Below, in pieces: positions 55,893-62,763 of a stretch of 64,000 bases of DNA (within the stretch, counting starts at the first letter, position 1; every line of letters begins with the position of its first letter). Position numbers and translations under genes: made by a program. Source of the stretch: Escherichia coli (GTDB lineage Bacteria; Pseudomonadota; Gammaproteobacteria; Enterobacterales; Enterobacteriaceae). Location of the stretch: NCBI RefSeq assembly GCF_022846255.1, contig NZ_AP025682.1; one strand, given 5' to 3'. The notes beneath the pieces are model-generated. The model was not told the origin of the DNA and did not search any database. It was given only the letters and a program-made list of their open reading frames with translations.

Positions 55893-58238
55893 ATGTCATC
55901 AACTAATTTCAGCCAGATTGCAGCCTTCCTGTGGTCTGTCGCCGACCTGTTACGCGGCGATTTTAAACAATCACAATATGGGCGAATTATTCTCCCTTTC
56001 ACTCTTCTTCGTCGTCTGGAATGCGTACTCGAAACAACGAAAGACGCGGTCATTGCTGAGGCGCAAAAAGTAAAAGCCATGAAACTACCAGAGGACGCTC
56101 AGGAGAAAATGATCCTGCGGGCGACCAATGGCCTCACGTTCTTTAACGCCTCAGCGATGGACCTCAGCAAAATGGGGCAAAATGGCATACAGGACAACCT
56201 GGAAAACTATATCCAGTCGTTCTCTTCGGATGCCCGAGAAATTTTCGAACACTTCAAGTTCAGCGAATTTGTCGGGCAGCTCGCTGATGCGAACTTACTG
56301 TTCAAAGTGGTGCAAATATTCGCTAAAGCAGATTTATACCCCGGGCGCGTCACCAACCACGACATGGGGCTGGTGTTTGAGGAGCTGATCCGACGTTTTG
56401 CAGAGAGTTCTAACGAAACCGCCGGGGAACACTTTACCCCGCGTGATATAGTCAATCTGACCACCTCGCTGGTGTTTTTCGATGATGATGATGCACTCAA
56501 TAAAGACGGCATCATCCGCACCATTTACGACCCAACAGCAGGAACCGGCGGCTTTCTCTCTTCCGGCATGGAGTACGTCCACAAACAAAACCCCAATGCC
56601 GTGATGCGCGCGTTTGGTCAGGAGTTAAACCCGGAATCCTACGCCATCTGCAAAGCCGACATGCTGATTAAGGGCCAGGACGTCAGCCTTATCAAACTCG
56701 GCAACACCCTTTCCAACGATCAACTCCCCACAGAAAAATTCGATTACATGCTCTCTAACCCACCTTTCGGCGTGGACTGGAAAAAGATCGAAGGCGACAT
56801 CAACGACGAGCACAAACTCAAAGGTGCTGATGGCCGCTTTGGCCCCGGCCTGCCCCGCGTCTCCGACGGTTCGTTGCTGTTTCTGCTGCACCTGATCAGC
56901 AAAATGCGCGATGCCAAAAGCGGTGGTGGGCGGATCGGCATCATTCTTAATGGCTCTCCGTTATTCACCGGCGGCGCGGGCAGCGGTGAAAGCGAGATCC
57001 GCCGCTACATTCTGGAAGCGGATTTGCTGGAAGGCATTATCGCCCTGCCCACCGACATGTTTTACAACACCGGTATCGCTACCTATGTGTGGATTTTGTC
57101 GAATAAAAAAGCGCCAGAGCGCAAGGGCAAAGTCCAGCTTATCGACGCTAGCAACCTGTGCGGCAAGATGCGTAAATCGCTGGGGTCAAAACGCAATATT
57201 CTCGGGGAGGAGGATATTGGTTTAATCACCCGCACGTTTGGCGATTTCGAATTCGTTGCCACCACCACGCTTGCGGCGTTAGGCCTGGAGAAAGCACCCG
57301 AACAAAAATCCAGCCGGGGACGCCAGCCCGCAACAACCAAAACCGAGGCGGCAAAAACCTTTGCCAGCAAAGTCTTTCACAGCACCGAGTTTGGCTATCG
57401 TCGCATCACCGTTGAACGCCCGTTACGCCTGTCGGCTCAGATCACCGATGACGCCATTGCCACATTGCTCTTTGCGCCGAAGCCGTTTAACGCTCCGATG
57501 GCGCAACTGTATGACGCCTTTGCTTTCCAGTGGCAGGACGGTAATTACGGCGACTTAACAGAGATAGAAAGTGAAGCCCGCGCCATTCTTAAAGCCGATT
57601 TTAGCGAGCTGAAAGAGAAGCAAATTAAAGATCTGCTCGACAGCAAATTATGGCTGGTCCAGCGCGGATTAATGGAAAAAGCGCGGCGTATTCAGGCGGC
57701 GATGGGTATGCAGGCGGGCGGCAAAGATACCGTTAGCAATGACTTTAATCAGTTCCAGTTGACGCTGAAAGAGGCGTTCAAAACCGCAGGCGTGAAGCTG
57801 GATGCGAAAGAGAACAAGCAGTTTATTGATGCCATTACCCGCAAAAACCCGGACGCCGAGCCGGTAGTCAGCAAGGTACTGAAAGAAGCGGCCCAACCGC
57901 TGTATGGCGCGTGTGAGTACAACGGAAAGGTTGTGGAGTTTGAGCCGGATGGCGACCTGCGTGATAACGAGAATGTGCCGTTAAATCCGGCGGTATCTAC
58001 CAGCGAGTTGATCGAGGGTTACTTCAAAGCAGAAGTGTTACCGCACGCCGCGGATGCGTGGATTAACGCCGATAAACGCGATGCGAAAGATGGGGATATC
58101 GGGATTGTGGGGTATGAAATTCCGTTTAATCGCCATTTTTATGTTTATACACCGCCGCGACCGTTGGAGGAGATTGATGCTGATTTGGATGCGGTAAGCG
58201 CTGAGATTATGAAACTGTTGCAGGAGGTACATTCCTGA
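55893..58238 (+). CDS. hsdM: Type I restriction-modification system methyltransferase subunit (long form with C-terminal extension)
   Basis: ORF track 55884..58238; start set to second ATG (MSSTNF) with AAGGA RBS; HsdM N-domain, SAM-binding [10 protein letters not shown], catalytic NPPFG; about 781 aa. Confidence 0.85.
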
Positions 58239-59503
58239 TGGCGGGGTTAAATAAGTATCGGGCGTATCCGGAGTACAAGGATTCTGGGGTGGAGTGGTTG
58301 GGGGAGATACCAGTCCATTGGAATATAAATCGGTTAGGACATTTTTTTGAGGAACGTAGAGAAAAGGTTAGTGATAAGGATTTCCCAGCATTATCAGTCA
58401 CAATGCAAGGGATTGTTCCTCAGCTTGAAACAGCAGCTAAAACGGATGCTGGAGACAATCGTAAATTAGTTTTAAAAGATGATTTTGTAATAAATAGTCG
58501 TTCTGACAGAAAAGGTTCAGCCGGTGTATCTCGGTTAAATGGCTCTGTTTCATTAATTAGCATAGTCATGCAACCAAAAAAAATAAATGTCAATTTTGCC
58601 CATCACCTACTCCGAAGCTATCCCTTCCAGGAAGAGTTTTATCGCTATGGGAAAGGAATCGTAGCAGATCTGTGGAGCACTAATGCCTCCGAGATGAAAA
58701 ATATACTACTCCCTGAAATTCCTGGCAGCGAAAGTGAAAATATTGCAAATTTTCTCAACTATGAAACCGCAAAAATCGATATCCTGATCGAGAAACAACA
58801 ACAACTTATTGAACTGCTGAAAGAAAAACGTCAGGCCGTGATTAGCCATGCGGTGACCAAAGGGCTAAATCCTGATGTGCCGATGAAAGATTCTGGGGTT
58901 GAGTGGTTGGACGAAATCCCTGAACACTGGAGGATATGCAAATTAAAAAACCTAGCTAAAATATGTAATGGACAGGATTATAAACTCGTTCAAGCAGAAA
59001 CCGGTTATCCAGTAATAGGCTTCGGGGGGCAGTTTGCATGGGCGAATACTTTTCTATATGATAAACCATCAGTCCTCTTGGGTAGAAAGGGTACAATTGA
59101 TAAACCATTGTATATAGACAAGGCATTTTGGACCGTCGATACAATGTATTACACGGAAGTATTTGATTGCATTATAGAGAAATATTTATATTATTTAGCA
59201 CTGACAATTCAGTTTAATCGTTATGCAACTAATACCGCACTGCCTAGTATGACTCAAGAACACTTAGGTAATTACTCATTTTCATTGTCATTCAACCTCA
59301 GTGAGCAAAAACTAATAATTAATAGCATTGAAAAATCATTAATTAAAATAGATGCCCTAACCGAAAAACAGTTAAAACAAATCGAACTCCTCAAAGAACG
59401 CCGCACCGCCCTTATCTCCGCCGCCGTCACCGGCAAAATAGATCTCCGCAACTGGACCGCCCCCATCGCCAAAACGGAAGCACCCACGGAGGCCAGCGCA
59501 TGA
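58238..59503 (+). CDS. hsdS: Type I restriction-modification specificity subunit
   Basis: 421-aa ORF with two target-recognition domains, each preceded by a GVEWLxEIPxHW repeat; start overlaps hsdM stop (TGATG); AGGAGG RBS. Confidence 0.85.
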   Translation: MAGLNKYRAYPEYKDSGVEWLGEIPVHWNINRLGHFFEERREKVSDKDFPALSVTMQGIVPQLETAAKTDAGDNRKLVLKDDFVINSRSDRKGSAGVSRLNGSVSLISIVMQPKKINVNFAHHLLRSYPFQEEFYRYGKGIVADLWSTNASEMKNILLPEIPGSESENIANFLNYETAKIDILIEKQQQLIELLKEKRQAVISHAVTKGLNPDVPMKDSGVEWLDEIPEHWRICKLKNLAKICNGQDYKLVQAETGYPVIGFGGQFAWANTFLYDKPSVLLGRKGTIDKPLYIDKAFWTVDTMYYTEVFDCIIEKYLYYLALTIQFNRYATNTALPSMTQEHLGNYSFSLSFNLSEQKLIINSIEKSLIKIDALTEKQLKQIELLKERRTALISAAVTGKIDLRNWTAPIAKTEAPTEASA

Positions 59504-62500: not shown

Positions 62501-62763
62501 CCGACAAAGATATGATCAGCAATGCTTTTTCGGTGTATAACAAAATAACTGAAAATGAAAATGTTATGACACAAATTAATAATAATCCGCCAGAACAAGC
62601 TATTCTTGGTGATTTCCTCCAGGCAGTTGATAATGCTGTAATGGACAGTAATGACGCTCGACAAGAATTTATGTTGCAATATTTATCCGATCCAGTTCGG
62701 GCAAAGGGCTTTGCTTATCTGATGTTTGATATGCTAACGGGGAAAATTGCTTTGCCAACATGA
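59500..62763 (+). CDS. hsdR: Type I restriction enzyme R subunit (SF2 helicase/endonuclease)
   Basis: 1087-aa ORF; helicase motif I SAGSGKS and motif II DEAH (VIADEAHSSQ); ATGA overlap with hsdS. Confidence 0.85.
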   Translation: MSNDITKELNLQNDIIAQMVEKGWIVGKGDGYDRERALYAQDVLHFVQTTQPQEWEKFARVYPNDNERHFLDALVAQLKKADSNATDIQTRTWGTLGVLRHGLKIRNARFSLCQFKPEHNLNPETLARYQQNICRIVPELVYSPYASNSVFAETGVKAKKWRIDLVLFINGLPIATLELKSEFKQAVQNAIAQYKKTRLPKDPATNKPEPLLTFKRGALVHFAVSQYDVFMTTKLAGDSTFFLPFNKGTKDGGAGNEIPEDTHRYATDYLWNEVLLPDNLLKILASFVHLQIEEKEDWNGLKAKKESLIFPRYHQWDVVNKLLEAATVEGTGHKYLIQHSAGSGKSNSIAWTAHQLSRLYDVNGEKQFHSVIVVTDRTVLDDQLQDTIWQFEHADGVVGRINNREGDGSKSEKLANALENSQPIIIVTIQTFPFVLKAIENSVSLKQRKYAVIADEAHSSQSGSTARQLKEVLMSEEMDDDVVLSSEDILDATIAARKGSSNLNYYAFTATPKSKTLELFGRRPRPDEPASKTNKPEAFHVYSMRQAIEEGFILDVLKNYTNYKVAYQLLQKLEDKDREVDSKRAKIKLNQWVTLHDHNISQKVKVIVDHFRKHVMHLLGGQAKAMVVTSSRKAAVRYKLAFDKYISENNYQKISAMVAFSGEVEFQEGDHNSLALLNQKFTEINMNPGLKGRDMRKAFDSDDYQVMLVANKFQTGFDQPKLCAMYVDKPLGGVECVQTLSRLNRTYPGKAESGTFVLDFINDPGEILKAFQPYYQTAELTDVSDPQQVFDLFEKLRATQIFQWHEVEQFCEAYFIKNKSNAAISNICKPAVERWKKRYLMAIDAYLTAKEMFERTKKTGDTVLITNAENSFKACKQEKDRLEIFKKDLGSFVRFYEFMSQIVEYDDKDLEKLSLFARHLRPLLHEQRLEEDEVDLSNVEISHYRLSKIHEQDLRLQEETPDYTLDASNDIGTAKAKDKKEEFLSQVLSRMNELFISDHLTDKDMISNAFSVYNKITENENVMTQINNNPPEQAILGDFLQAVDNAVMDSNDARQEFMLQYLSDPVRAKGFAYLMFDMLTGKIALPT

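Follow-up and report, generated by a model that had tools for sequence, protein, structure and literature searches.

The question raised by this locus is whether an operon that combines the three genes of a Type I restriction-modification (R-M) system with an unusually long modification subunit encodes a complete system, and to which family of Type I enzymes it belongs. The operon, hsdM-hsdS-hsdR, lies in a stretch of 64,000 nucleotides (nt) from Escherichia coli (contig NZ_AP025682.1), referred to here as the window, and its three proteins correspond exactly to the E. coli records BDH34999.1, BDH35000.1, and BDH35001.1. The analysis indicated that the locus is very probably a complete Type I R-M system, encoded by one operon within the immigration control region that lies between yjiA and yjiN on the E. 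coli chromosome, and we infer that it is probably active. We regard it as a new member of a Type I family that has been catalogued but not studied, and its specificity is probably new as well. Judged from the sequence comparisons described below, this family is large, falls outside the classical exchange families IA-ID, is widespread in Enterobacterales, and has as its hallmark a well-folded insertion in HsdM, about 280 amino acids (aa) long.

The preliminary description of the locus, made from the letters alone, had reported a co-directional hsdM-hsdS-hsdR operon with overlapping stop and start codons, and all its coordinates held when compared with the open reading frame (ORF) list and the raw sequence (Table 1). 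The stop codon TGA of hsdM and the start codon ATG of hsdS have one base in common in the sequence TGATG (58236-58240), while the ATG of hsdR and the TGA of hsdS form a 4-nt overlap, ATGA (59500-59503). Shine-Dalgarno-like sequences lie inside the upstream genes, AGGAGG at 58223-58228 within hsdM and GGAGG at 59488-59492 within hsdS, both at Shine-Dalgarno distance, and together with the overlaps they suggest that hsdM, hsdS, and hsdR are translationally coupled. The ATG at 55893 is the start used by the NCBI annotation for the hsdM homologue in another E. coli locus (L001). Frameshifts or premature stops, which had been named as findings that would overturn the description, were looked for in the operon and no frameshifts are present. 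The M-S-R order recurs with identical 1-nt and 4-nt overlaps in the Serratia marcescens homologue, and distant members with HsdMs of 654, 725, and 799 aa keep the order with overlaps of 1-8 nt; in these comparisons M-S-R order with overlapping junctions thus appears as a family trait and not as an exotic arrangement. The reading of the layout as different from the EcoKI type was supported, with a caveat. Only the hsdS/hsdR overlap departs from the classical layouts; the one-base hsdM/hsdS overlap is known for EcoKI, where translational coupling was proposed (PMC3510504), and the M-S-R order is shared with the Type ID system EcoMII, in which a gap of about 95 nt separates hsdS from hsdR. Since the start of hsdR is overlapped by hsdS, there is no room for an intergenic hsdR promoter, in contrast to EcoKI with its R-M-S order, where hsdR is served by a promoter of its own (PMC3510504) and lies 200 nt away from hsdM.

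The assignment to a Type I operon was supported by strong family matches for all three products, which are encoded together as is general for Type I systems, and by near-identical full-length homologues. In Pfam, HsdM matched HsdM_N (aa 9-143) and N6_Mtase (aa 155-453, E 4e-58), which left aa 454-781 unannotated. It carries the S-adenosylmethionine-binding motif DPTAGTGGF at aa 213-221 and the catalytic NPPF at aa 289-292, the pair of motifs that characterizes gamma-class N6-adenine methyltransferases, and its core fold matched the solved HsdMs of PacII, EcoKI, and EcoR124I in Foldseek, over only about 465-500 core columns. HsdR contains the HSDR_N, ResIII/SWI2_SNF2/DEAD, and T1R_D3-like domains of Pfam and matched TIGR00348 (hsdR) with an E value of 5e-54. 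Its nuclease motif (D164...E178-x-K180) is intact, and so are the helicase motifs I (GSGKS, 342-346), II (DEAH, 455-458), III (TATP, 509-512), and VI (QTLSRLNR, 738-745); thus, HsdR has the combination of a PD-(D/E)xK nuclease with superfamily 2 (SF2) ATPase motifs found in Type I enzymes. As a side observation, the extreme C-terminus of HsdR (aa ~1005-1082) gave a weak match (E 4e-6) to PDC-S15, a candidate-defence model of PADLOC.

HsdS was matched by the Specificity_I models of PADLOC (best E 2.3e-112) and has, as the preliminary description had proposed, two target-recognition domains (TRDs). The protein has an internal duplication and is laid out in the order repeat-TRD1-CR1-repeat-TRD2-CR2, with TRD1 at aa ~30-165, the conserved helical region CR1 at ~166-212, TRD2 at ~233-360, and CR2 at ~361-403. 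The duplication is visible in the protein as the repeated motifs KDSGVEWL(G/D)EIP.HW and I(D)..(I/T)EKQ..(Q)IELLKE(K/R)R.A(V/L)IS.AVTG, and in the DNA as a direct repeat (D1, Table 1). Compared with the nearest E. coli cassette, HsdS showed 71% identity, while HsdM and HsdR were 97% and 98% identical; compared with Serratia, HsdM and HsdR showed 82-84% identity (HsdR 84%), and HsdS 34%. These values bear the signature of Type I systems, conserved enzymes with swapped specificity. The HsdS of the window formed a singleton cluster at 90% identity, and it therefore likely represents a new combination of TRDs and hence a new bipartite target. Consequently, the strain probably methylates and restricts an uncatalogued bipartite sequence, which bears on the ease of its transformation or infection by phages.

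The canonical mechanism is the best supported one. By analogy with Type I enzymes of solved structure, two HsdM subunits and one HsdS would form an M2S1 methyltransferase, which would read the bipartite target through the two TRDs and produce N6-methyladenine on both strands. The addition of two HsdR subunits would yield the R2M2S1 complex, expected to translocate DNA at the expense of ATP from unmethylated sites and to cut at a distance, and the junction overlaps together with the Shine-Dalgarno sequences inside the upstream genes may keep the synthesis of the subunits coupled. Several observations weigh against a complete and active system. The score of HsdR in the TIGR00348 search (183.9) lay under the curated hsdR cut-off of NCBIfam (284.55), and the last ~300 aa of the protein received no domain assignment in Pfam. 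No convincing promoter was found, as the consensus scan gave fewer sites than shuffled sequences and none upstream of hsdM; two weak sites that it reported inside hsdS were uninformative, and the AT-rich hsdS may contain one or more internal promoters. Moreover, HsdM aa 455-735 has neither a Pfam match nor a counterpart among solved structures, so that its function is not backed by homology.

The length of HsdM given in the preliminary description, 781 aa from the ATG at 55893 with a long C-terminal region after the NPPFG motif (aa 289-293), proved correct, and it compares with 529 aa in EcoKI, 489 aa in Type IB (Sakai), and 539 aa in Type ID (EC958). Within PADLOC, the REBASE-derived MTase_I model PDLC03029 matched HsdM from end to end, including the C-terminal module (aa 2-780 to model positions 2-660/661, E 3.9e-280). 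The long HsdM type is thus already catalogued as a Type I methyltransferase, although the entry comes without a functional or structural account of the C-terminal module, and the HsdM studied here is about 120 aa longer than the model, mostly in the linker and the helical region. PADLOC also contains no fewer than five further MTase_I models, 810-932 positions in length, and HsdM is long only relative to Types IA-ID.

The AlphaFold model of HsdM, computed with an alignment of 90 sequences, showed one chain with a mean predicted local distance difference test (pLDDT) value of 91 and a predicted template modelling (pTM) score of 0.84; the only poorly defined part (pLDDT 56-77) comprised residues ~460-490. 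This linker insertion (aa 454-488) was seen in the alignment only in the members of 780-787 aa and not in the relatives of 644-799 aa. The module that follows (aa 489-735) consists of a beta-hairpin unit, which bears FGYRR..ERPLRL, a bundle of helices, and a unit rich in beta strands, in which DLRDxENVPL and EVxPHxxDAWI lie. The tail (aa 736-781; E736-741, H745-749, and H758-780 in the model) has the strand-turn-helix pattern of the HsdM tails of Types IA, IB, and ID when printed side by side with them. Since aa 736-781 resemble a canonical tail, the simplest reading is that about 280 aa were inserted ahead of this usual C-terminal tail and behind the catalytic domain. In the EcoKI model, the HsdM tail runs along the helices of HsdS (PMC3510504), and aa 736-781 are presumed, by analogy, to bind the coiled coil of HsdS. 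In the alignment of the members of 644-799 aa, the part after the catalytic domain falls into three: the FGYRR..ERPLRL unit, which is conserved, a helical region, which is variable, and the strongly conserved last ~100 residues, which carry DLRDxENVPL, EVxPHxxDAWI, and GYEIxFxRxFYxYxPPRxLxEI with a helix behind them. A search with HsdM aa 455-781 returned 2368 matches at E<=0.001 among 1.84 billion cluster representatives, the last ~100 residues being the most widely shared, and nothing relevant was found in the literature on long HsdMs or on C-terminal extensions of HsdM. Thus, about 2400 protein clusters share a large and confidently folded HsdM module that has no Pfam entry, solved structure, or assigned role, which makes it a clear target for structural work rather than a conceptual surprise. 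Most likely, the insertion provides an extra surface for protein-protein or DNA contacts within the complex.

Exchange families are defined by complementation of subunits in vivo and by cross-reaction of antibodies (PMC2481252, PMC12707154), and identities are 17-33% between families and above 90% within a family in the IB example (PMC2481252). Compared with Type IA (EcoKI), HsdM and HsdR showed 27% and 23% identity, with Type ID (StySBLI/EcoMII) 27% and 24%, and with Type IB (O157 Sakai allele, EcoAI family; HsdM 489 and HsdR 810 aa) 25% and, over only 81 aa, 31%. The match to the HsdM of Type IC (EcoR124I) was limited to the catalytic domain (phmmer E 7.8e-26; ~21% identity in the structural alignment), and that of HsdR to a stretch of 64 residues. 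None of the four comparisons reached the high identity seen within a family. Given 21-31% identity to the references, the system lies by sequence outside Types IA, IB, IC, and ID, the four families compared. It shares features with some of their members. EcoMII of E. coli EC958 (StySBLI family) occupies the same site by yjiA and has an HsdR of 1087 aa and an HsdS with two TRDs, but its HsdM lacks the inserted C-terminal module. EcoKI is found in the same island and follows the same subunit logic, but its HsdR (1170 aa) is longer. EcoR124I, for which R2M2S1 structures exist (7BST, 7BTO), shares the core fold of HsdM (Foldseek E 1e-13, ~500 aligned columns) and the domain set of HsdR, and is the best available mechanistic template, although its HsdM has 520 aa and can be matched in sequence only to aa 150-457. 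EcoR124I is carried on a plasmid, with hsdR under its own promoter.

A long subunit of this kind could in principle be an annotation or sequencing artefact, in which the assembly joined a normal HsdM of ~450-530 aa to a different gene downstream, and a mis-called fusion had indeed been named in advance as a finding that would discredit it. The search with the C-terminal region returned many short proteins (260-330 aa) spanning that region only, and the core and the C-terminal part were called as separate genes in two loci, L014 and L016. These two cases of stand-alone ORFs in metagenomes were artefacts: in L016 the split fell at a run of N in the scaffold, and in L014 it came from a 62-nt overlapping frameshift on a metagenome contig of 4 kb. 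As a single ORF of 780-787 aa, with 81-85% identity over the full length, the long HsdM is conserved in hundreds of genomes of many genera (Salmonella, Citrobacter, Serratia, Klebsiella, Yersinia, Pantoea, Cronobacter, Xenorhabdus, and others), three contigs on record carry the exact 781-aa sequence, the AlphaFold model is one compact chain, and the canonical tail stands at the very end of the protein, past the extra region. The fusion was thus rejected, and an artefact is extremely improbable. It is also improbable, to a lesser degree, that the operon is kept mainly as a methyltransferase with an epigenetic or "orphan-like" role and silent restriction, or that it is a decaying remnant. Type I systems are capable of epigenetic regulation (PMC7383803), but hsdR is full length, with all nuclease and helicase motifs preserved and 98% identity to homologues in other E. 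coli, and the way in which HsdS has diversified from strain to strain points to selection for defence specificity. When the locus was checked for phase variation, no simple-sequence repeats, no inverted or extra hsdS copies, and no recombinase of the phase-variation kind were found, and therefore the design is not phase-variable. Membership in MADS or other defence systems was rejected, as only weak and partial matches of the methyltransferase domain to Mad2 were obtained.

A full restriction-modification system being preferred, it may still be asked whether its family has a name. With Types IA, IB, IC, and ID excluded, the one named family left is Type IE (PMC3874165), which has KpnBI of Klebsiella pneumoniae as its prototype, and it is conceivable, though we hold it tentatively, that the system is a member of Type IE and not of an unnamed family. 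HsdM homologues of this system are common in Klebsiella, a 786-aa HsdM of 83% identity being common in K. pneumoniae. In KpnBI, hsdM and hsdS reportedly overlap by one base, its hsdS is said to be 1266 bp long, as is hsdS here, and its hsdM is said to be well over 2 kb, with 25-33% identity to Types IA-ID. However, the hsdM length so reported may differ from 2361 bp, and several other long HsdM families in PADLOC have C-terminal regions unlike that of the HsdM studied here, so that KpnBI could belong to one of these. No member named KpnBI occurred among the names in the protein clusters of this system, and other papers refer to KpnBI for its motif alone. Whichever name applies, we would speculate, with considerable doubt, that the module at aa 455-735 is a functional addition and not a passive spacer, for example a second surface, for docking or regulation, that would tune the balance of methylation against restriction when one coupled operon yields all three proteins, and that it defines a distinct exchange family. 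Such a family would be the fourth of the enteric immigration control region, and it would either lack a name or be the little-studied Type IE itself.

The operon lies downstream of yjiA, from which it is separated by one gene of the BrnA family, one of the Fic family, and a divergent one of the GmrSD type (Table 1). In the homologous E. coli locus L001 the island extends to yjiN, and the NCBI pipeline annotated the M, S, and R genes between yjiA and yjiN; this island is the enteric immigration control region (PMC12707154). The flanking core DNA of the window is 98.2% identical to E. coli. A 2025 survey of the yjiA-yjiN island listed only Types IA, IB, and ID (14%, 11%, and 12%; 36% for all types) (PMC12707154, Table 3). 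Outside these three, a fourth Type I family occupies the site: the cassette was found in 116 of the 5426 complete E. coli genomes, with 95-97% DNA identity and always on the chromosome. Thus, even at the best-studied defence island of E. coli, not all Type I systems fit the classical IA-ID scheme, the additional family being present in ~2% of complete genomes.

Table 1. Positions of the operon, its parts, its putative signals, and the neighbouring genes in the window
Feature	Coordinates	Strand	Description	Basis
yjiA	51216-52256			
BrnA-family gene	52290-52592/52658	-	antitoxin gene	
Fic-family gene	52731-53465	-	244 aa	
GmrSD-type gene	53509-55608	-	699 aa, DUF262/DUF1524-like	
GATC (Dam) sites	55796-55811		two sites, 12 bp apart	
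Candidate sigma-70 promoter	55806-55835	+	TTGATC-18 nt-TATAAC; weak, inferred only	read by eye
hsdM	55893-58238	+	781 aa, N6-methyladenine DNA methyltransferase subunit	ORF list; alternative ORF start 55884
HsdM aa 454-488	57252-57356	+	short beta strand, then low-complexity linker, poorly predicted	
HsdM aa 489-735	57357-58097	+	conserved inserted module	
HsdM aa 736-781	58098-58235	+	canonical-looking tail: strand/turn, then 23-residue amphipathic helix (758-780)	
hsdS	58238-59503	+	421 aa, specificity subunit	ORF list
Direct repeat D1	58277-58327 / 58886-58936		within hsdS	
hsdR	59500-62763	+	1087 aa, nuclease and SF2 translocase subunit	ORF list
Terminator-like hairpin	62772-62809	+	CCGGGGT...ACCCCGG, then U-rich tract AUAUUAUUUG; 9 nt past hsdR stop	
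Membrane protein gene	62829-63542	+	237 aa, hydrophobic	

The candidate promoter of hsdM sits in a 284-nt AT-rich region shared divergently with the GmrSD-type gene, and it was not reported by the consensus scan as the last base of its -10 box is C. Upstream of hsdM, TGATCATGTTTTTGATCA contains two GATC (Dam) sites, of which the second shares bases with the candidate -35 hexamer, and methylation-sensitive expression via these sites is possible. The hairpin behind hsdR had a predicted RNA folding energy of -16.8 kcal/mol (z -2.6 relative to shuffled sequences) and was missed by the consensus scan, its loop being longer than 8 nt.

Several neighbouring genes also deserve mention. The BrnA-family gene next to yjiA has no brnT partner, and the Fic-family gene upstream of it, which is present in both the window and L001, encodes a degenerate Fic motif (FFDGNKRTSR); where these two loci have the Fic-family gene and brnA, EC958 carries brnT-brnA. 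The Fic-family and BrnA-family genes might together form a hybrid Fic/BrnA toxin-antitoxin pair, or the BrnA-family gene might encode an orphan antitoxin. The GmrSD-type gene, divergent from hsdM, belongs to the Type IV restriction genes; aa 10-555 of its product were matched by Orf5 of PADLOC (E 7.9e-215) and a separate C-terminal part of ~100 aa by the candidate-defence model PDC-S18, while NCBIfam gave no model for it. Downstream, 65 nt after hsdR, a very AT-rich gene (27.6% GC vs 51% for the window) encodes a probably multi-pass membrane protein without a PADLOC match or a significant match in NCBIfam. In E. coli L001 this gene goes with the cassette, whereas in Serratia it does not. In Serratia marcescens (L004) the homologous hsdMSR genes reside in a different defence island, adjoining McrBC, and are flanked (5085-8548 and 16073-20364) by a Zorya-like trio of MotA/ExbB-like, OmpA-like, and DUF8245 genes, by McrBC, and by a ScoMcrA-like SRA gene. 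In the distant member with the HsdM of 799 aa (L010), a gene encoding a 547-aa SLFN_AlbA_2/HATPase_c_4 protein (11766-13409) is situated between hsdS and hsdR and starts at the last base of hsdS; the Type I operon may thus contain an accessory defence gene.

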